A stretch of 64,000 bases of DNA. It comes from Kiritimatiellia bacterium (GTDB taxonomy: Bacteria; Verrucomicrobiota; Kiritimatiellia; RFP12; UBA1067). Below are positions 40,745-49,203 of the stretch, one piece after another. A model generated the notes under the pieces. It did no database searches, was not told the origin of the DNA, and worked only from the letters and a program-made list of their open reading frames with translations. The translations under genes were made by a program, and so were the position numbers. The stretch's first letter is position 1. Each line of letters starts with the position of its first letter. The stretch is from assembly GCA_017406465.1 (NCBI GenBank), contig JAFQYM010000030.1, positions 31,684 through 95,683 on the forward strand. The letters are read 5' to 3'.

Positions 40745-42820
40745 CTACACGACAATCGCGCCGTTTTTCGCCGTGACCTTGATCTCGGCTCCCGGGAGAT
40801 ACTTCCCCGCGATGATGTTCTTCGCAATCGGGTTCTCGAGCTCGCGCTGGATCGCGCGCTTCACAGGGCGCGCGCCGAACGCTGGGTCGTAGCCGTCCTT
40901 CGCGAGCTGTGCAAGCGCCTTGTCATCGACAACGAGCTTGAAGTCCTGCTCCGCGAGACGCTTTGCGAAGTCCTTCAGCTGGAGCTTCACGATTTCGGCT
41001 ATTTGCGTTTCGTTCAGCGAGTCGAACTCGAGGATCTCGTCGAGGCGGTTCAGGAACTCCGGGCGGAAGATGTCCTTGAGCGCGTCCTTCGGCGCGTTCG
41101 AAGTCATGATTATCACCGTGTTCTTGAACGACACCGTGCGGCCGTGGCTGTCGGTGAGCCGTCCGTCGTCGAGCACCTGAAGAAGCACGTTGAAGACGTC
41201 GGGGTGCGCCTTCTCGATCTCGTCGAGAAGGACGACCGAGAACTGCTTTCTGCGCACGGCTTCGGTGAGCTGACCGCCTTCGTCGAAACCGACGTATCCG
41301 GGCGGCGCGCCGACGAGGCGAGAGACGGCGAACTTCTCCATGTACTCCGACATGTCGAGCCGGACCATCGCGTTCTCGTCGTCGAAGAGTTCCTGGGCGA
41401 GCGCCTTTGCGAGTTCCGTCTTGCCGACGCCAGTGGGCCCGAGAAAGAGGAACGCGCCGACTGGCCGGTTGCGGTTCTTGATGCCGGCGCGAGACCTGAG
41501 TACAGCGTCTGCAACAGCGTCGACCGCCTTGTCCTGGCCGATCACGCGTTCGTGCAAGATCGCGCCGAGACGCATAAGCTTCTCGCGCTCGCCCTCCACG
41601 AGTTTCGTTACCGGAATGCCGCTCCAACGCGAGACGACCTCGGCGATTTCGTCGGCCGTCACCTCCTCACGAAGAAGCGTCGCGCCTGACTTGGACTTTA
41701 GTGCGTCCTCGTGTTCCTTGAGGCGCTTTTCGAGCGCGGGGATGTCGCCGTACTTCAGTCGCGCGGCCTCGTTGTAGTTGCCCTCCGTCTCGGCACGCTC
41801 GGCTCGCGACTTGAGTTCCTGCAACTGGGTGCGCACCTTGCGGACTTCCTCAAGGTCGGCCTTTTCGCGCTTCCACTGCGCCGTCATTGCGTTGGATTTC
41901 TCCTTGAGCCCCTTGAGCTCAGACTGCAGTTCCTCTAGCCGCTTCTTGGAGTTCTCGTCCTTTTCCTTCTTTAGCGCGATTTCCTCGATCTCGAGACGGC
42001 GAACGTGGCGTGAAATCTCGTCGAGCTCTTGAGGGCACGAGTCCATCTCGGTTCGGATTCTTGCGCACGCCTCGTCGAGAAGGTCAATCGCCTTGTCGGG
42101 GAGGAATCGGTCTTGGATATAGCGTGAAGAGAGAACGACCGCGCTTACGAGCGCTTCGTCTCGTATGTGGACGTTGTGGTACTTCTCGAAGCGCTCCTTG
42201 ATTCCGCGCAGGATAGAGATTGCGTCTTCCTCGCTGGGCGCGGCGACCTGCACCGGCTGGAAGCGGCGCTCGAGCGCCTTGTCGGACTCCATGTACTTGC
42301 GGTACTCGTCGAGCGTGGTCGCGCCGACGCAGTGAAGTTCGCCGCGGGCGAGAAGGGGCTTCAGCATATTGCCTGCGTCGGACGATCCTTCGGTCTTGCC
42401 TGCGCCGACGATGGTGTGGATTTCGTCGATGAAGAGGATGATCTTTCCTTCAGATTCCTTTATCTTCTTTAATACGGCCTTTAATCGTTCCTCGAATTGG
42501 CCGCGGTACATTGCGCCTGCCATGAGGGCCGTCATGTCGAGGGCGAAGACCGTGCGGTCCTTGAGTCCTTCCGGCACGTCGCCTCGGACGATGCGCTGCG
42601 CGAGTCCCTCGACGATGGCTGTCTTGCCAACGCCCGGTTCGCCGATGAGCACGGGGTTGTTCTTCGTCTTGCGCGAGAGTATGCGGATGACGTCGCGAAT
42701 CTCGGTATCGCGACCGATGACTGGATCGAGCTTGCCAGTCCGTGCGAGCGCGGTCAAGTCGGAGCCGTACTTCTCAAGGCACTTCTCGTTGTCTTCTGCT
42801 GGTTCAAAATTTGCGTTCAT
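40745..42820 (-). CDS. clpB: ClpB disaggregase lacking the N-terminal domain
   Basis: KLDPVIGRD, Walker A GEPGVGKT and [18 protein letters not shown], coiled-coil M domain, [16 protein letters not shown] and a -10 lie directly upstream. Confidence 0.9.
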
Positions 42821-42933: not shown

Positions 42934-42949
42934 AATTTTAAGGTTTTTC

Positions 42950-43049
42950 AAAAAAGTTTGTCATCGGCTGTCACTGGGTGCATACATTCACTTGGTTAAA
43001 CTTGTTGCTCGAACCGAAGCGTCATCTTCAACGCTTCGGTTTCGTGTTT
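42950..43049 (+). repeat. 100-bp direct repeat, copy 1
   Basis: Aligns without gaps to 47771-47870 with 4 mismatches (42974, 42975, 42979, 43031). Confidence 0.95.
42957..42984 (+). promoter_or_regulatory. Candidate ECF/alternative-sigma promoter, copy 1
   Basis: A-tract, TTTGTCATCG, N11, GTGCATA. Confidence 0.5.
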
Positions 43050-43050
43050 T
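42990..43050 (+). ncRNA. Candidate ~60-nt sRNA, copy 1
   Basis: Follows the promoter-like motif. Unstructured 5' part, then hairpin AACCGAAGCG-N10-CGCTTCGGTT and a T-rich tail. Confidence 0.4.
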
Positions 43051-43055
43051 TATGA

Positions 43056-43082
43056 AAAAGAGGTATTTGTAAAACCTCTTTT
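43056..43082 (-). terminator. Intrinsic (bidirectional-type) terminator of the C10 peptidase gene
   Basis: AAAAGAGGT-N9-ACCTCTTTT, 12 nt downstream of the minus-strand stop. Confidence 0.75.
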
Positions 43083-43094
43083 ATGCTGCGAGGG

Positions 43095-46000
43095 CTAAAG
43101 GTCTACAGGGAAAGCTTCGCATTCGGTGACGGAATTCTGTTCGTCCACCTTTATCCCAACAGAAAACATCCTATGCAAACCGTCAGATCCAACCTTTGGC
43201 GGAGCGAATGTCATTACCTGATATCCCTTGCCAGTCTTTACGAGTTGCGAAGTTCCGCTGACTTTCGTTGCGCCGTTGGCGAAGGAAACGACGCCATCTT
43301 TCTTAAAGGTCAGGACAAGACCGTCTTCCTGTTCCACTTTGAAATCCCTCTTGAATACCGGCATCGATGTCTTGGTATCCGCACGCTTCCAGAGATTCTG
43401 CCACGCAGACCACTCGTCGCACGACACTTCGCCTATCGCCGGAAGGTCGGTGTCGACAATGCTCGATGCGACCGTGATCACATTGGTTATCATGGCTTTG
43501 CCGTTTTTGCCGATGACGGTCGCGAGGAAAATGCCGTCCTCGGTGCTGTCATAGGAGCTCGCCGTGAGCGCCCATGTAAGGTTGTCGACAAGCATCTTGC
43601 CGCTTATCTTGCCTGCCGGCGACACCGTCAGCGCCTGGATGGCGCCGACTGCGTTGGCATCCGCGTCCCATGCCGTGCCGTAAAAGTTTCCAACCGCCCA
43701 TGCGGGAAGGGAATTGACTTGGAAGTCAAACGAGAATGTCTCTGATGACTTGCCTGCCGTCGTCACCGTGAATACTACCTTTGACGGCGTTACGGCGCCG
43801 GTCTTGGCATCGACCTTGGATGCCGTCGTCGGAACGCCCGTAACCGAATATTCCCCAGTCGTCTTGTTCTGGACGAGTTTTAGCCCGGCTGGAAGCCCCG
43901 CGACCTTCACCGTTGTCTTTGAAAGCCCGTCCGGCACAATCGGCCAGTCAAGGGCGACGCCGCAATAGCGGTTGACGGGCGCGTTTGCCGTGCCGCTCGC
44001 CGCGCCGTTCAGATTTGAGCTGTCCACTTCGAGGCCAATCGCGTCTTTGTCTTCCTGCGCAGTAACGAACTGTGCCGTGATGAATATGTCGTTCATGCCG
44101 TCCATTCTCAGCTTGATTGTCGCGGCGAAGGGATCCGGTATTTTGGCGTCTCCGCCGGTGATGACCCAGCGGCTGAAGACAAAGCCCTTGTCCGCCTTTG
44201 CCGTCAGCGAAACGTCCTTGCCTGCCGCGACCTGCCCGTACTTTGGGGTCATAGAAATCTTGCCTGTGGCGCCAGAGTCCTGCGTCAGCGATTCGATGGT
44301 GGCGACAATGCCGGGATCGCGGTAGACGTTGTCGCCGTAGTTCTCTCCATGGTGTGCGACGAGATTGACGTCCTTGAACACGGCAGGATATCCTTTTTTC
44401 GCGTCAGGGGGAATCGCAACTACTACGTGCAGTCCTGTTGGCTCTGCGAGCGCATTTGCCGAGAACGACGCTTTGCGCGACTTCGCGCCGTCGGGGATGT
44501 CGGCCGAACCTTTTACGGCGCCTTTCTCGTCAAGAGCAAAGGCAATCTCGCAGGAGGCATTGCCGTAGCCTGCGGAGAAGGAATAGGCGCCCGCGTATGT
44601 GGCGACAAGACCTGCGGCAAATGCATCGGATTTGTCCGACCAGATGATGCGGTAGAGCGTCGTGTCGTCGCTGCCGAACGAACCGGCGGCCGCGCCAGTT
44701 GCGGAGTCGACGGACAGGTATTCCGCCTTGAAGTCCGTGAGCGCCAGCGCCAGATCGCGAGTTATTTTGCCGGCGGTCGCCGACAGCCCGATCAGCAGGT
44801 TCGTTGTCCCCGTCGTTTCGCTTTCAATGGTGAAGGAATCGGCTTTGAACGTCCAGTTCGTGCCGTCCAGTGCGATTTTGCCCGATATCTTGCCTGCCGC
44901 CGTGATGCTCATCGTTGCCACGCCGCGCGAGGCGACGGATCCCTCGAAGTTTCCGACGGCCCATGAGGGAAGGGGGTCGACCGTTATCCTGACAACATAG
45001 GTCTTAGTCGACTTGCCTGCCGTCGTCACCGTGATCTTGACCTCCGACGGAGTGATGTGTCCCGTCTTTGCGTCGACCTTAGACGCAGCGGACGGAGCGC
45101 CGTAGATCGTATTTGCTGGGACAAGCACTTCCTTGGTCTTTGAATCGACAACGTCCTTTGCCGCAAACTTGAGCCCCGAGGGAAGCCCCGCCACTTTCAC
45201 CGTTGTCGCCGAGAGCGCCGTCGCGGCGACTGGCCACTGGAGCGAGATGCCGCACATTACATTTGTCAAGAGCGTGTCGGAGGGGTTTTCGAAGGAATGG
45301 CCGTCCATTTCAAGCGCAATCGCCTTTGCGTCATCGGCGAGCGTCGCAAAACGCGCTTCGAGCGCCAGGTCTTCTGCCGGCATCTCGAGTGAAAGCGCCG
45401 CATTTCGGGATTCATCCACCAGTTCCCCGTCCAGATAATAGCCGCAGAACGCGAAACCGGCGTTAGCCGTTGCCTTCAGCGCGACTTTCTTGCCGTATGG
45501 ATAGGAACCGGCGCCCGTGACCTTGCCCATTTGCGGAGCAGAAGCTCCGTCGCAGTCGACGACGTCGGCTGACAATTTCGGGAACAGCACGTTGAATCCG
45601 GCGGTAACGACCTTCTTTTTGCCGTCCTTTCTCGCGGTGAATGTTACGGTCGTGCGCCCCTCTTTCGCGGCAATGCCGCTCAGTCGCCTATTTGGGGCGT
45701 CGTATGCAATTCCCTGCGGCAACCCCGAAACGGTCAACGTCCAGCCATTCTCCGCGACGGTCGCAATAATGTCCGACAGGTCGGGCGCGAGCCCCGCCCA
45801 GAGTGTGTAGGGGCTGCCGAGTCCGAATCCAATAAAGGCATCGCGTTCAAACGTGGCTTCTGATATGATTGAGCAGTTAAGATCCTCCTTGAAGGCACGG
45901 GCCTTCACCGTTACGCTCGAAGAGATCTCGAACGGTCCGCAATACTCTTCGCTTTCTTCCGTCGGATCCGTTCCGTCCGTCGTATACTTTATGACGGCAC

Positions 46001-47696
46001 CGTCCGTGGCGCACGAAATCGTCACAAGTGTGTTTGGATAGAAGATTCCCCCGTTGGGCGAAATCATCGGCGGCGCGGCAGACTTGACGTTTATGACCAT
46101 GTCGCATCCCCAGGAGTTTCCACAGGCCACGCTTTTCCCCGCGTCATTGATCCAGCACATGCCAACGTCAAGAGTCACACTCGAGCTAGCGCTCCTTGTT
46201 GTCGTTGCCTTGGCCGACACACTGTAACCAGTCGCTTTCACGGTGTACGACTTGTCCGCGTCGACTACAAACGCATATATTCCCGATTCGCTTGTCGCCG
46301 TGCTGGCGATCGGCTCGTCGGAATCGGCAGAGAAGATCGCGACATCCACGTTGGGAAGGGGAGTGCCCTCTTCATCGGTAACGCGCCCGGACACTATTTC
46401 CCCGTTTGTCTCGGGGAATATATTGTATATGACCGATTCCACCATCGTAGACTCGTATTGGCCGTCGGCCGTCGTGATGTACGGCAAGGCATACCATACG
46501 TTGTCTTCACCTGACCACCCGAGGTTGACATGCGTATAGAGGGTCCCGTCTGAATAGCCGTAGCCGTCGGCGAAGGCGATGTGCCCGACAAATCCAAGGA
46601 TCACTGGCAGTCCTGCGTCAAGATTCGAGCAGACGATGCGATTGCGGAAACTCTCGTCCTTTAGATCCTTCTCGCATGCGCATACTATGGCGTTTTTGTA
46701 TCCAAAGTCTTCTATCAGCACCGATGCCGAGCCTGCTCCGCCTGAAGAACTGGCCTCCTCGTCCCACCACATCCTCATTGCGACACCGCAGTCGTATGTC
46801 AGTTTCCCGATGGCGGCCAGCTGGGTCTCGGTCGCCCCTCCTGCGTACCAAGGCACATATTCGTATGCCTCGGGAATAAGTGGCATGCTGTCATAGTCGT
46901 ATTCTCCGCCAAACATCGTCATGAACGCGTTTTTAGTCCGAACCTTGCAGCCCTTGGTCTTTGCCTTGACGGACTTTGGGTACTCGTGATAACGCATGAT
47001 TTGCGCAAGAGTCGTCGCAACGCATCCGCACGGATAGTTGCTTGGGGTGTAGTAGTTGTAGCAATTGGTGCCCATGTTGATGTATATGGAGTTGTTCTCT
47101 TGCCCCCACATTGACTTTACAAACGGCTCGACACGGACGTCGGAAACAGATTCGGCCGGGTCGGTGGCCGATTTCAGCATGTTCCTTGATCCCTTGGCCG
47201 AAGATGACGTTCTTGCGCCTTCCGAAAGGAGCCGATCCCACTGCCTTTGGGTGGCCGTGCGCTGCTGTTCCTCGGCCGTCGAAGTCAGGAGCCGGACCTT
47301 GCGAGCGGGAGTCGCGGGTTCGTTTGCGCGGGTGCGCATTGCGATATCGGCCTTGAGGATGTCCAAGAGCGGGCTGTTGCAGTCGCCCTTGCGCAGATTG
47401 CCTGTCGGCGAGAATGCAATGACCGGCTGGACAAGATCGTCTGCGCCCATGACGACGAAACCGCCGCCGTCAAGCGAGACGACGTGCATTTTCGCGTTGT
47501 CCGCCTCTAAGGTCTCGCCGTCCGCGGCGGATCTGCCGCGGAGACCATCCATGGAGTAGCCGAGGTTTATCCACGCCTGCGCTGCCGTCTTCGCGGACTC
47601 AAGCGAGACTTCTGCGGCATTTGAGATGGCCGGCGGGAAAAACAGTGCTGCGACTGCAATGGCCGAGGATGTCCAAGAAATGGATATCTTCTTCAT
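43095..47696 (-). CDS. Large secreted C10 (streptopain-like) peptidase with Spi/I69 prodomain, CHB_HEX_C-like, putative Ig and B-repeat domains
   Basis: GGFVVMGADD..QPVIAFS (I69-like), PCGCVATTLAQIMRY, GHIAFADGY, HVNLGWSG, YTTDGTDPT, repeated SGLP.G, G.VTGAGSY.YGKKV.LKATANAGF.F. Confidence 0.85.
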   Translation of the reverse strand: MKKISISWTSSAIAVAALFFPPAISNAAEVSLESAKTAAQAWINLGYSMDGLRGRSAADGETLEADNAKMHVVSLDGGGFVVMGADDLVQPVIAFSPTGNLRKGDCNSPLLDILKADIAMRTRANEPATPARKVRLLTSTAEEQQRTATQRQWDRLLSEGARTSSSAKGSRNMLKSATDPAESVSDVRVEPFVKSMWGQENNSIYINMGTNCYNYYTPSNYPCGCVATTLAQIMRYHEYPKSVKAKTKGCKVRTKNAFMTMFGGEYDYDSMPLIPEAYEYVPWYAGGATETQLAAIGKLTYDCGVAMRMWWDEEASSSGGAGSASVLIEDFGYKNAIVCACEKDLKDESFRNRIVCSNLDAGLPVILGFVGHIAFADGYGYSDGTLYTHVNLGWSGEDNVWYALPYITTADGQYESTMVESVIYNIFPETNGEIVSGRVTDEEGTPLPNVDVAIFSADSDEPIASTATSESGIYAFVVDADKSYTVKATGYSVSAKATTTRSASSSVTLDVGMCWINDAGKSVACGNSWGCDMVINVKSAAPPMISPNGGIFYPNTLVTISCATDGAVIKYTTDGTDPTEESEEYCGPFEISSSVTVKARAFKEDLNCSIISEATFERDAFIGFGLGSPYTLWAGLAPDLSDIIATVAENGWTLTVSGLPQGIAYDAPNRRLSGIAAKEGRTTVTFTARKDGKKKVVTAGFNVLFPKLSADVVDCDGASAPQMGKVTGAGSYPYGKKVALKATANAGFAFCGYYLDGELVDESRNAALSLEMPAEDLALEARFATLADDAKAIALEMDGHSFENPSDTLLTNVMCGISLQWPVAATALSATTVKVAGLPSGLKFAAKDVVDSKTKEVLVPANTIYGAPSAASKVDAKTGHITPSEVKITVTTAGKSTKTYVVRITVDPLPSWAVGNFEGSVASRGVATMSITAAGKISGKIALDGTNWTFKADSFTIESETTGTTNLLIGLSATAGKITRDLALALTDFKAEYLSVDSATGAAAGSFGSDDTTLYRIIWSDKSDAFAAGLVATYAGAYSFSAGYGNASCEIAFALDEKGAVKGSADIPDGAKSRKASFSANALAEPTGLHVVVAIPPDAKKGYPAVFKDVNLVAHHGENYGDNVYRDPGIVATIESLTQDSGATGKISMTPKYGQVAAGKDVSLTAKADKGFVFSRWVITGGDAKIPDPFAATIKLRMDGMNDIFITAQFVTAQEDKDAIGLEVDSSNLNGAASGTANAPVNRYCGVALDWPIVPDGLSKTTVKVAGLPAGLKLVQNKTTGEYSVTGVPTTASKVDAKTGAVTPSKVVFTVTTAGKSSETFSFDFQVNSLPAWAVGNFYGTAWDADANAVGAIQALTVSPAGKISGKMLVDNLTWALTASSYDSTEDGIFLATVIGKNGKAMITNVITVASSIVDTDLPAIGEVSCDEWSAWQNLWKRADTKTSMPVFKRDFKVEQEDGLVLTFKKDGVVSFANGATKVSGTSQLVKTGKGYQVMTFAPPKVGSDGLHRMFSVGIKVDEQNSVTECEAFPVDL

Positions 47697-47702
47697 GCGC
47701 GC

Positions 47703-47711
47703 ATTATATCA
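47703..47711 (-). promoter_or_regulatory. Extended -10 for the C10 gene (leaderless)
   Basis: TGATATAAT on the minus strand, 6 nt before the ATG. Confidence 0.65.
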
Positions 47712-47770
47712 AATTTTCCGCGTTTTGCCACTAGGGATCCTTGTGTAAAATAAGGATACGTAAAAAATCA

Positions 47771-47870
47771 AAAAAAGTTTGTCATCGGCTGTCATCGGGC
47801 GCATACATTCACTTGGTTAAACTTGTTGCTCGAACCGAAGCGTCATCTTCAGCGCTTCGGTTTCGTGTTT
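47771..47870 (+). repeat. 100-bp direct repeat, copy 2
   Basis: Offset 4821 bp from copy 1; 96 of 100 positions identical. Confidence 0.95.
47778..47805 (+). promoter_or_regulatory. Candidate ECF/alternative-sigma promoter, copy 2
   Basis: A-tract, TTTGTCATCG, N11, GCGCATA. Confidence 0.5.
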
Positions 47871-47871
47871 C
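47811..47871 (+). ncRNA. Candidate ~60-nt sRNA, copy 2
   Basis: Identical to copy 1 except one change at the loop edge (47852). Confidence 0.4.
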
Positions 47872-47930
47872 TAGGGTATGTCGCCTTTTGCGATTTTAGC
47901 CACAAAGAGCAGGAGAAACAGAAGGAGAGT

Positions 47931-48048
47931 CAGTAGTTGGAGTCCAGAGTTGGAGTTGGGGAGTGGAGTTGGCGGCGGAGCGAAGGCCTGGGCGAGGGGA
48001 TGCGGCGTGTTCGCCGAGGGCCCCTGAGGAGGAGCCTTCGGACGTCGC
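47931..48048 (+). repeat. GAGTTG-type tandem repeats followed by a nested REP-like palindrome
   Basis: agttgg/gagttg units at 47935-47972; CGAAGGC (47981) pairs with GCCTTCG (48034); GGCGA (47991) pairs with TCGCC (48011). Confidence 0.5.
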
Positions 48049-48071
48049 TAGACAAAAAAATTAAAAAATTT

Positions 48072-48099
48072 TTTGTCATCGCCAGCGTCGGCGTGCATA
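48072..48099 (+). promoter_or_regulatory. Candidate ECF/alternative-sigma promoter, copy 3 (outside the direct repeat)
   Basis: A-tract, TTTGTCATCG, N11 (a different spacer sequence), GTGCATA. Confidence 0.5.
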
Positions 48100-48186
48100 T
48101 TGCTTATTAGCAGACCCAATAAAATCAAGGGTTTTGCGCGTTTTTGCGGGGTAATTTTACCCACGAAATTTTTTTTGTATACCCCC

Positions 48187-48216
48187 TTGCGCACAGCACA
48201 CAAGATATGCTATAAT
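48187..48216 (+). promoter_or_regulatory. Sigma70 promoter of the surface-protein operon
   Basis: TTGCGC, 18-nt spacer, TATAAT preceded by TGC. Confidence 0.7.
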
Positions 48217-48222
48217 GTCCGC

Positions 48223-48441
48223 GTTCTCGAACAACAAGGAGGATTCGGACGATGTGTCCGGGCCTTGGTTAACAGACCGGGGCACAACGAAAGTTGACTC
48301 TGAAGTTGCGAGAGGACAACAAGTTAACCACCTGAAGTGGACTTGAGTGAAGGCGGTCGGGTGATCGCAAGAGCTCTGGAAAGCGGAAGGTACCGGAGAA
48401 GGGTCCAACAAGCCCGACTCCAAAAAAAGGAAAAAAACAAA
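48223..48441 (+). ncRNA. Structured ~220-nt 5' leader (candidate cis-regulatory RNA)
   Basis: Hairpins with GNRA loops (CAAC-GAAA-GTTG, C-GAGA-G, TC-GCAA-GA, CT-GGAA-AG); long-range GTCGGG/CCCGAC; three CAACAAG motifs. Confidence 0.5.
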
Positions 48442-49203
48442 ATGAAGAAGCTCATGATTGCTTGCGCTGTTGCGGCTACGACCGTCGGCGCTTTCGCGGG
48501 TGGCTGCGGTGACGACGATCCCGTCGTTGTTCAGGATCCTGTCAACCAGGTCTATCGTCTCTCCTTCACGGGCAAGACGACTGACGGCGTTCCGGGCAAG
48601 GATATTGTCACGCCCGTCTTCTGCGGCGATGACGACGTTCAGGACGGCTGCGTTGTTCGCGTCCCGGCGAACCTCAAGATCGAGGGCTGGGTTGTTCTCT
48701 GCGACATCACCTGCGGCACGATCCTCGACGTGTTCAACGCTCCGAAGAGCCAGGCCTACTGGACCACGAAGCCCTACAAGGCTGACATTCCGGATGGCGC
48801 TGCTACGTTCGATCTCATCAACGTGATCGGCAAGAAGGGCAAGGATGCTGAGGCTGCTGGTAAGTTCACTGGTACCGTTACGTACGCTGCGGACTATACG
48901 TGGTCGCTTGGCGACGGCCTTGTTTTCGCGGGCCTTGGAAAGACCGCGGTCAAGAACGGCAGCTGGGCGTACTTCCCGTCCTTCTCGGGCAACTTCGCTG
49001 GCTCGCCTGTCGCGTCCTGGTACATCAAGGGCAACGTCTGCGAGCAGACGCATGTCTGGGAGCCCTGCACGATGGCCGTCAACTGCGACGAGACCCCGAA
49101 CACGGTTGCGTTCGGCAAGTGGGCGATGAAGTATGATGCCGCGGCCACGAAGAAGGTTGCGACGACGAATCCTAGCAAGCCGTCTTACGCGACGATCCAC
49201 TAA
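48442..49203 (+). CDS. Secreted Cys-rich hypothetical protein, probably highly expressed
   Basis: Signal peptide MKKLMIACAVAATTVGAFA; 8 Cys in the mature part; many GCT/GTT/GGT codons, unlike neighbours; SD AAGGA. Confidence 0.85.
   Translation: MKKLMIACAVAATTVGAFAGGCGDDDPVVVQDPVNQVYRLSFTGKTTDGVPGKDIVTPVFCGDDDVQDGCVVRVPANLKIEGWVVLCDITCGTILDVFNAPKSQAYWTTKPYKADIPDGAATFDLINVIGKKGKDAEAAGKFTGTVTYAADYTWSLGDGLVFAGLGKTAVKNGSWAYFPSFSGNFAGSPVASWYIKGNVCEQTHVWEPCTMAVNCDETPNTVAFGKWAMKYDAAATKKVATTNPSKPSYATIH

Follow-up and report, generated by a model that had tools for sequence, protein, structure and literature searches.

Among the systems described so far, those closest to the one considered here include the envelope-stress small RNAs (sRNAs) MicA, RybB and MicL of E. 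coli and Salmonella, which depend on sigmaE (RpoE) (PMC1804206), and the sigmaE-dependent sRNAs FoxI and FoxJ of Fusobacterium (PMC11005410). Extracytoplasmic function (ECF) sigma factors activated by kinases are exemplified by the pairs EcfP-PknT of Vibrio parahaemolyticus and EcfK-PknS of Xanthomonas citri, of group ECF43, and further kinase-linked groups, ECF59, ECF61, ECF62 and ECF217, are found in planctomycetes (PMC8999054, PMC13147305). The sigma factors of group ECF43 are distinguished by a region 2.2 that lacks the acidic DAED motif and carries a phospho-threonine motif, QTTA or STTA (PMC8999054, PMC13147305). The promoters of ECF41 sigma factors read TGTCACA-N16-CGTC (PMC3426412), and therefore a -35 box of the TGTCA type is possible for an ECF sigma factor. 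In this work we analysed a bipartite motif with such a box, which occurs in a stretch of 64,000 nt (the window) from a Kiritimatiellia bacterium (assembly GCA_017406465.1, contig JAFQYM010000030.1, positions 31,684 to 95,683), and which is likely to be a promoter read by an ECF sigma factor.

The motif, TTTGTCATCG-N11-GYGCATA, has exactly three matches in the window, at 42957-42984, 47778-47805 and 48072-48099, all on the plus strand, and the count remains at three when up to two mismatches are permitted. By chance 0.02 matches would be expected per window, and none of 100 shuffled sequences gave three. An A/T tract (AAAAAAG or AAAAAATTTTT) is located 5' of every copy; that of copy 1, at 42937-42956 of the plus strand, resembles an UP element. 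Copies 1 and 2 are contained in a 103-nt direct repeat (42950-43052 and 47771-47873, 95% identical), whereas copy 3 has the boxes alone in common with them (71% identity over 35 nt, with a different spacer). The preliminary description of this DNA had reported the three copies, the A-tract before each and the position of the third outside the direct repeat with an unrelated spacer, and each of these observations was reproduced. Read as promoters, copy 1 extends over 42957-42988, with a -35-type box TTTGTCATCG at 42957-42966 and a -10-type box GCATACATT at 42980-42988; copy 2, delimited by the motif scan and the repeat comparison, extends over 47778-47809 with the same two boxes; and copy 3 extends over 48072-48103 with the boxes TTTGTCATCG and GCATATTGC. 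Scanning of the whole genome, a 3.5-Mb assembly of 102 contigs with 59% G+C that is 83% complete, detected no exact copy besides the three in the window. With a weight matrix built from the sites of related genomes, a fourth, slightly degenerate site, TGTGTCATTG-N13-GCATATATA, was detected at 96305-96332 of contig C58, which corresponds approximately to window coordinate 64622, about 620 nt past the window end. This site is located directly 3' of the last giant gene of the surface-protein cluster. The four sites score between 31 and 56, compared with 16.7 for the next-best match in the genome, and because no other match scores close to them, the four sites bracket a single island of approximately 22 kb.

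The recurrence that the preliminary description expected of a genuine motif was found across the genus, of which 117 genomes were scanned, and in the sister genera, of which 80 genomes were compared. When the direct repeat was compared with related genomes by BLAST, the short RNA encoded behind copies 1 and 2, here termed sRNA A, was retrieved from seven genomes including this one, and the two boxes were present 5' of every retrieved copy, with differing spacers. The pattern TTTGTCAT-N15-GCATA gave 50 matches in 28 of the 117 genus genomes, as opposed to one match for the reversed control and five for the identical boxes at N14 spacing, and approximately seven of the 50 are conserved coding-strand coincidences or lone chance matches without the A/T tract. 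Across the order, TGTCATYG-N13-GCATA had about 125 matches versus about eight for the reversed control, nearly all of them in one family, to which the sister genera belong. The spacers are unrelated between the RNA and gene families, and the boxes and the A/T tract are kept. When the first T of TTTGTCAT is designated index 0, the columns conserved beyond the search pattern are T0, Y8, G9, Y28, A29, T31 and AAA at -7 to -5. In 38 sites from related genomes, G23, C24 and A25 are invariant, A29 is nearly so, positions -7 to -5 before the first box are A in 27-34 sites, and the flanks are A/T.

The sites in relatives precede sRNA A, in many cases as a tandem of two or three copies; RNA B, the short RNA behind copy 3 in the window, which always lies just 5' of the housekeeping-type promoter of the surface-protein operon; and other short terminated RNAs, among them one termed RNA C. 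They also precede leaderless genes without a Shine-Dalgarno sequence, which encode a membrane-anchored HEAT-like protein and lipoproteins of the SurA/PpiC type. The mini-regulon predicted from these sites would comprise three or more sRNA families together with a leaderless membrane protein and chaperones resembling SurA, and the presence in relatives of chaperone lipoproteins and a membrane-anchored protein fits an envelope role. It had been suggested earlier that an envelope-related regulon controls the island. The envelope part of this suggestion agrees with the targets found in relatives, but direct control of the island does not agree with the finding that the structural operon has its own promoter at 48187-48216. 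Because that promoter is of the housekeeping type, the sigma factor would control the island indirectly, via the sRNAs and the flanking genes.

The position of the boxes relative to what follows them is also conserved. Conservation of sRNA A starts at index 37-38 (GG), the ATG of the orthologs of the HEAT-like protein is located at index 38-41 in six species, in each case without a Shine-Dalgarno sequence, and the motif always lies about 10 nt 5' of a small-RNA gene or of the ATG of a leaderless envelope-protein gene. That unrelated RNAs begin, and leaderless start codons lie, at one fixed distance from the boxes argues that these constitute a promoter. Transcription is predicted to start at approximately index 38, which is 10-11 nt after GCATA rather than the approximately 6 nt proposed earlier, and the predicted start sites in the window are therefore near 42995, 47816 and 48110. 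Numbered from a start at index 38, TGTCAT occupies approximately -36 to -31 and GCATAYAnT -15 to -7. The design TGTCATYG-N13-GCATAYAnT differs from that of the housekeeping promoter, which at about 25 tRNA genes is very regular, with (CCCC)TTGCGC or TTGACA, N17 and TGrTATAMT; none of the 38 motif sites has this tRNA-type design. Furthermore, a generic sigma-70 scan did not call copies 1 and 2, and called copy 3 only (TTGTCA-17-CATATT, 9 of 12 positions).

The sigma factors of this genome consist of RpoD and 13 ECF-type proteins of ECF size. In nearly all genomes of the genus, a single sigma factor has region 3, a few genomes having a second match of RpoD length, and therefore group-3 sigma factors appear to be absent from the genus. 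When the 20-kb contexts of motif sites were screened for sigma genes, a candidate was found which in this genome is encoded at 32805-33455 of contig C63. The protein has 217 amino acids, starts with MSTFPVTS and passes the NCBIfam model for the ECF superfamily (63 bits versus a cut-off of 43); to the SigK and SigE models it has a weak, sub-threshold similarity (E of about 1e-5, far below the cut-offs). Its gene overlaps by 4 nt the 3' end of a gene for a Hanks-type Ser/Thr kinase (C63:33452-34861), and translation of the two genes would be coupled. The kinase has one transmembrane segment, a Pkinase domain (E=1e-38) and a C-terminal portion predicted to be outside the cytoplasm. The gene pair was also found in relatives, and no anti-sigma factor was recognisable. 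Region 2.2 of the sigma factor, ENADDIVMQV, keeps two Asp residues and has neither a Thr residue nor a QTTA or STTA motif. Control of the sigma factor by the kinase is suggested by the gene order, in analogy with the kinase-linked systems mentioned above.

The distribution of the motif follows that of this sigma factor. With orthologs defined by at least 67% identity, 21 genomes of the genus have both, two have the motif only, five the sigma factor only and 89 neither (Fisher p=2e-16, in a test that ignores phylogeny); thus, an ortholog is present in 21 of 23 genomes with the motif and in five of 94 motif-free genomes, and three of the five genomes with the sigma factor only match a relaxed motif pattern. 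In the sister genera, the corresponding numbers are 14, six, five and 55 (Fisher p=2e-7, phylogeny again ignored). A control ECF sigma factor, encoded on contig C67, was not associated with the motif in the genus (both 3, motif only 20, ECF only 11, neither 83; p=0.55). Neither the motif nor the candidate is present in species whose control ECF is 97% identical, and the association thus does not simply reflect shared ancestry.

Furthermore, the motif adjoins the sigma gene in about 13 other genomes, upstream of the sigma or kinase-sigma operon in six and downstream of the sigma gene in seven, and all elements of these arrangements are on the same strand. In G112 and G065, the motif is followed by RNA C, a housekeeping-type promoter, the kinase gene and the sigma gene. 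In G030, it is followed by the HEAT-like gene and, further on, by the kinase and sigma genes, and in G016 a small leaderless membrane-protein gene takes the place of the HEAT-like gene. In G066 and G110, the motif precedes sRNA A and then the sigma gene. In the sister genera (G240, G264, G250, G173, G294, G281 and G245), the motif is found 38-100 nt after the stop codon of the sigma gene.

We therefore consider it rather likely that the motif is a promoter read by one ECF (group 4) sigma factor, which in this genome would be the kinase-linked 217-aa protein encoded on C63. An ECF-type promoter had been proposed for the three copies from the start, and this proposal gains from the conserved boxes and spacing, the fixed geometry to RNA and open reading frame starts, the design distinct from that of housekeeping promoters, the presence of ECF proteins as the only alternative sigma factors of the sigma-70 family, and the co-occurrence and adjacency of motif and sigma gene, together with the negative result for the control ECF. 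Several observations weigh against it. The candidate is divergent, its regions 2 and 4 scoring just under the Pfam cut-offs, and the boxes TGTCAT and GCATA lack the classic ECF signatures AAC and CGT. The -10 part contains TAYAnT, which is like the housekeeping -10 hexamer and lies 19 bp from TTGTCA, which in turn matches five of six positions of the sigma-70 -35 hexamer. No ortholog of the candidate was found in two motif-carrying genomes, one of which (G019) is 92% complete, and the association tests, as stated, disregard phylogeny. Finally, the expectation that the motif would be found upstream of ECF sigma genes, as in autoregulation, holds in relatives only, since none of the 14 sigma genes of this genome has the motif upstream, and in this genome and its closest relatives there is no motif within 6 kb of the kinase-sigma pair.

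The resemblance to housekeeping hexamers could alternatively mean that the motif is an RpoD promoter with an UP element, perhaps needing a class-II activator that binds TTTGTCATYG, with an indirect link to the ECF sigma factor, for example because the sRNAs regulate the sigma factor or because both belong to a common island. Either TTGTCA would be the -35 hexamer and CATAYA, after a 17-bp spacer, the -10 hexamer, or TAYAnT would take the latter role after a 19-bp spacer. In addition to the match of TTGTCA and the score of copy 3 in the sigma-70 scan, this explanation could draw on T26, A27 and T31, which mimic T-12, A-11 and T-7 of the -10 hexamer, on the A/T tract, which is UP-element-like, and on the fact that strongly expressed sRNA genes are often RpoD-dependent. 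However, the combination of a TTGNNN hexamer with TGrTATAMT at a distance of 17 bp is absent from all 38 sites, the sigma-70 scan passes over copies 1 and 2, and the invariance of G23, C24 and A25 and the near-invariance of A29 would be unexpected for such a promoter. In the 17-bp frame the critical last position of the -10 hexamer (T-7) is A in 36 of 38 sites, and the other frame needs a spacer of 19 bp. Moreover, no activator gene is linked to the motif, whereas the ECF gene is adjacent to it in about 13 genomes and co-occurs with it specifically. For these reasons, we regard an RpoD promoter as improbable.

Pho boxes are repeats of CTGTCAT, and the boxes could accordingly be an operator for a regulator, such as one of the PhoB/OmpR type that recognises direct repeats of TGTCAT, instead of elements by which the promoter itself is recognised; in close relatives, the spacers of the sRNA A promoters indeed hold a second TGTCATCG exactly 10 bp downstream (TGTCATCGgcTGTCATCG). 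The second repeat is missing in copy 3, in distant sRNA A promoters and in all other target families, and there is no dyad symmetry. In addition, RNA polymerase itself seems to be positioned by the boxes, given their constant distance from the 5' ends of the RNAs and from leaderless ATGs, and an operator is therefore very unlikely. Even less weight can be given to the explanation that the three copies are the remnant of a local duplication, with copy 3 the older and no function in common. Copies 1 and 2 did arise by a recent duplication (95% identity over 103 nt), and all three copies lie within 5 kb, but these boxes, equally spaced, also stand in front of RNAs and protein genes that are unrelated to one another, in dozens of genomes from several genera, and the similarity does not extend beyond the boxes. 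The comparative data contradict this explanation, and we give it almost no credence.

Recognition by other classes of sigma factor or regulator was also considered and rejected. The boxes do not align with the sigma-54 consensus (TGGCAC-N5-TTGCA), and the resemblance to it is missing in copy 3. The geometry is partly similar to that of FliA/sigma-28 promoters (TAAAGTTT-N11-GCCGATAA) and of RpoH-type promoters (CTTGAAA-N13-14-CCCCATnT); a typical genome of the genus is without a group-3 sigma factor and has one region-3 sigma factor. A Bacteroidetes-type TTTG/TAnnTTTG promoter disagrees with the motif in spacing and in the -7 box, a MerR-type long-spacer promoter would require a dyad symmetry that is absent in and around the spacer, and PhoB-like direct repeats fail because the second TGTCATCG is confined to closely related sRNA A promoters. 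The opposite orientation, in which transcription would run toward the clpB-like gene and the C10 peptidase gene, was rejected because the conserved RNAs, terminators and leaderless open reading frames are all on the plus side.

For the ECF promoter, the transcripts in the window would be two copies of sRNA A and RNA B, all on the plus strand. sRNA A, identical behind promoter copies 1 and 2, is approximately 58 nt long. Copy 1 was located at 42994-43051, with a terminator predicted at 43011-43042, and copy 2, in the 95%-identical repeat, at 47815-47872, with a terminator predicted at 47832-47863. The 5' end is a single-stranded seed, GGUUAAACUUGUUGC, which is followed by the terminator hairpin (CCGAAGCG/CGCUUCGG) and a U-rich tail. 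In an alignment of 19 sequences the seed is invariant (GGTTAAACTTGTTGC), and four of the nine stem pairs have compensatory changes. RNA B, of about 67 nt (48110-48176), was delimited by its homologues and by consensus and single-sequence folds, and consists of a conserved hairpin, GACCC-AAUAAAAUCAA-GGGUU, followed by another hairpin and eight consecutive T. Its homologues are found behind the same motif in G013, G087, G105, G117, G119, G090, G091 and G194. Neither sRNA A nor RNA B matched a family in Rfam. The fourth site lies 10 nt 5' of the ATG of a leaderless open reading frame of 284 amino acids (C58:96346-97200), whose product has an N-terminal membrane anchor and a weak match to HEAT repeats, and whose orthologs have the motif at an equal distance from the ATG in at least five other species.

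RNA B ends just 5' of the promoter of the surface-protein operon, which reads CCCCC-TTGCGC-N18-TGcTATAAT (48187-48216, plus strand), has the same design as the tRNA promoters and is outside the motif regulon; many genomes of the genus have kept this stretch. The promoter is followed by a leader of approximately 220 nt, and the first gene starts with the ATG at 48442. According to RNAduplex, a box at 48295-48330 of the leader (plus strand; core CAACAAGUUAACC) is complementary to the sRNA A seed, with a duplex energy of -24.9 kcal/mol compared with -20.1 +/- 2.4 for shuffled leaders, 15 of 500 of which were as good. A genome-wide search for 10-nt perfect complements of the seed gave no further convincing target. 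The leader also contains, at 48264-48274 and 48318-48331, a near-copy of the seed (CCTTGGTTAAC) and its complement (CAACAAGTTAACC), so that binding of the sRNA could be in competition with a long-range helix within the leader itself. A gene for Hfq (PF17209) had no match in this genome, which is 83% complete.

Several further features of these loci were noted. Housekeeping promoters throughout the genome are unusually uniform, with a run of C abutting the -35 hexamer (CCCCCTTGCGC) and an extended -10 element, TTTGGTATAMT; this design is found at most tRNA genes, and 48182-48216 is an example in the window. RNA C, which is absent from this genome, is about 150 nt long (...GGAAACAAACGGCC...GTTCTTTCTGAAC..., with a terminator) and is predicted to be driven by the same motif at the loci L091 (G112), L128 (G065), L074, L079, L145, L147 and L149; it usually lies directly 5' of the housekeeping-type promoter of the kinase-sigma operon or 3' of the sigma gene. 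The two sRNA A copies of the window are separated by a gene on the opposite strand (43095-47696, minus) for a C10-family peptidase of 1533 amino acids with the domains Peptidase_C10, a Spi inhibitor-like prodomain, InlB B-repeat and CHB_HEX_C. This gene has its own housekeeping-type promoter, GTGGCA-17-TGnTATAAT, at 47731-47703 of the minus strand. In the relatives G087 and G117, the two copies of sRNA A form a tandem without an intervening gene, at a distance of 230-320 nt, and thus it looks as if functional sRNA genes were separated by insertion of the peptidase gene, rather than as if the gene were bracketed by repeats resembling attachment sites. The 100-nt repeats around it would be explained as sRNA genes, each predicted to have its own promoter. 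The interval from the second sRNA A gene to promoter copy 3 includes a purine-rich stretch at 47905-47975 with repeated GTTGGAGT units (gtcagtagttggagtccagagttggagttggggagtggagttgg), and related loci have other short repeats at this position, for example ACGAAATACACGAAAT and GGTGAATGGTGAAAGG. The first box of promoter copy 1, taken on the minus strand, can be read as ATGACA-18-TAAAAT (42964-42935, 10 of 12 positions), a possible divergent promoter for the gene of a ClpB-like ATPase (40745-42820, minus); copy 2 has no equivalent, and the reading is probably a coincidence of the A/T tract. In the region C63:30732-36669, the kinase-sigma pair follows a gene for a 621-aa protein, which by eye we take to be a GH27-type alpha-galactosidase with a carbohydrate-binding module. 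The pair is followed by a gene for an acidic protein of 229 amino acids that matches no domain and has a membrane anchor at its N-terminus; this protein is a candidate partner or anti-sigma factor of the C63 sigma factor. The protein encoded 3' of the sigma gene has no similarity to the leaderless HEAT-like protein.

The scheme that we infer combines recognition of the motif by the C63 sigma factor, control of that factor by the kinase and a direction of the sRNA regulation. By analogy with kinase-activated ECF sigma factors, the kinase would sense an envelope cue and activate the sigma factor. The holoenzyme would then bind the A/T tract, the -35-type element TTTGTCATYG and the -10-type element GCATAYAnT, at the rigid spacing TGTCAT-N15-GCATA, and would begin transcription at the three start sites predicted above. 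The output in this genome would be the two copies of sRNA A, RNA B and, just outside the window, the leaderless mRNA of the membrane-anchored HEAT-like protein. The seed of sRNA A may pair with the box in the leader of the surface-protein operon, which would likely tune the synthesis of the abundant surface proteins post-transcriptionally, probably by repression. RNA B could be a trans-acting sRNA, or its transcription could read through into, or occlude, the adjacent housekeeping-type promoter.

The arrangement of ECF promoter, short RNA and housekeeping promoter precedes not only the surface-protein operon but also the kinase-sigma operon and other genes. It is conceivable, although we hold it to be doubtful, that a kinase-gated ECF sigma factor of an uncultured Kiritimatiellia family, with sRNAs as its main conserved output, one of them joined in the sister genera to the sigma gene at its 3' end, is an independently evolved, Hfq-free counterpart of the sigmaE-RybB/MicA system that throttles the synthesis of giant surface proteins, and that the arrangement of ECF promoter, short terminated RNA, housekeeping promoter and gene is a dual-input switch, in which transcription under stress continues into the housekeeping promoter or blocks its use.

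Hardly anything is known of the transcription signals and RNA regulators of Kiritimatiellia, or of those of most other uncultured gut and rumen bacteria of the Planctomycetes-Verrucomicrobia-Chlamydiae (PVC) group. Here, a promoter consensus, a candidate sigma factor and kinase, a mini-regulon and a probable sRNA-mRNA pair were assigned from sequence comparison alone. If these assignments are true, the combination of an ECF sigma factor with repressing sRNAs for envelope homeostasis arose outside Proteobacteria and Fusobacteria, a kinase-coupled ECF sigma factor makes use of the sRNA-repression solution, and the sigma factor and its promoter offer an orthogonal pair for synthetic biology.

The sporulation sigma factors sigmaE and sigmaK of Bacillus have -10 elements reading CATACAnT and CATAnnnTA, and the -10 element of copies 1 and 2 (GCATACATT) reads like CATACAnT. 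This is a lead only, because the lineage does not sporulate, the protein is of ECF size without region 3, and the -35 boxes are unrelated. The ECF41 promoters share with the motif a -35 box of the TGTCA type and a bipartite structure with rigid spacing, and in both cases the regulon is very small and close to the sigma gene; in contrast to ECF41, the -10 element here is GCATAYAnT instead of CGTC, and the 217-aa sigma factor is missing the C-terminal regulatory extension of about 100 amino acids. As in group ECF43, the sigma gene is located beside the gene for a membrane-bound Hanks-type kinase, here with an overlap of 4 nt, and no anti-sigma factor is recognisable, but region 2.2 (NADDIVMQ) has two acidic residues and no QTTA or STTA motif. 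The sigmaE-dependent sRNAs are similar in that short, terminated sRNAs with a conserved 5' seed are transcribed from an ECF-type promoter and are directed toward the mRNA of an abundant envelope protein, by predicted pairing in the present case, and also in that genes for periplasmic chaperones of the SurA/PpiC type belong to the regulon, here in relatives. The promoter boxes differ, those of sigmaE being GGAACTT and TCAAA, and the partner of the sigma factor would be a Ser/Thr kinase instead of an anti-sigma factor of the RseA type. Unlike MicA and RybB, sRNA A occurs in a genome in which no Hfq gene was found, and it is predicted to pair approximately 110 nt 5' of the start codon, in a structured leader, instead of at the ribosome-binding site; its host, unlike the hosts of sigmaE, is an uncultured member of the PVC group. 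The features that distinguish this putative pair of ECF sigma factor and promoter, with its sRNA arm, are the coupling to a kinase, the leaderless targets and the recurrent layout of ECF promoter, short RNA and housekeeping promoter.

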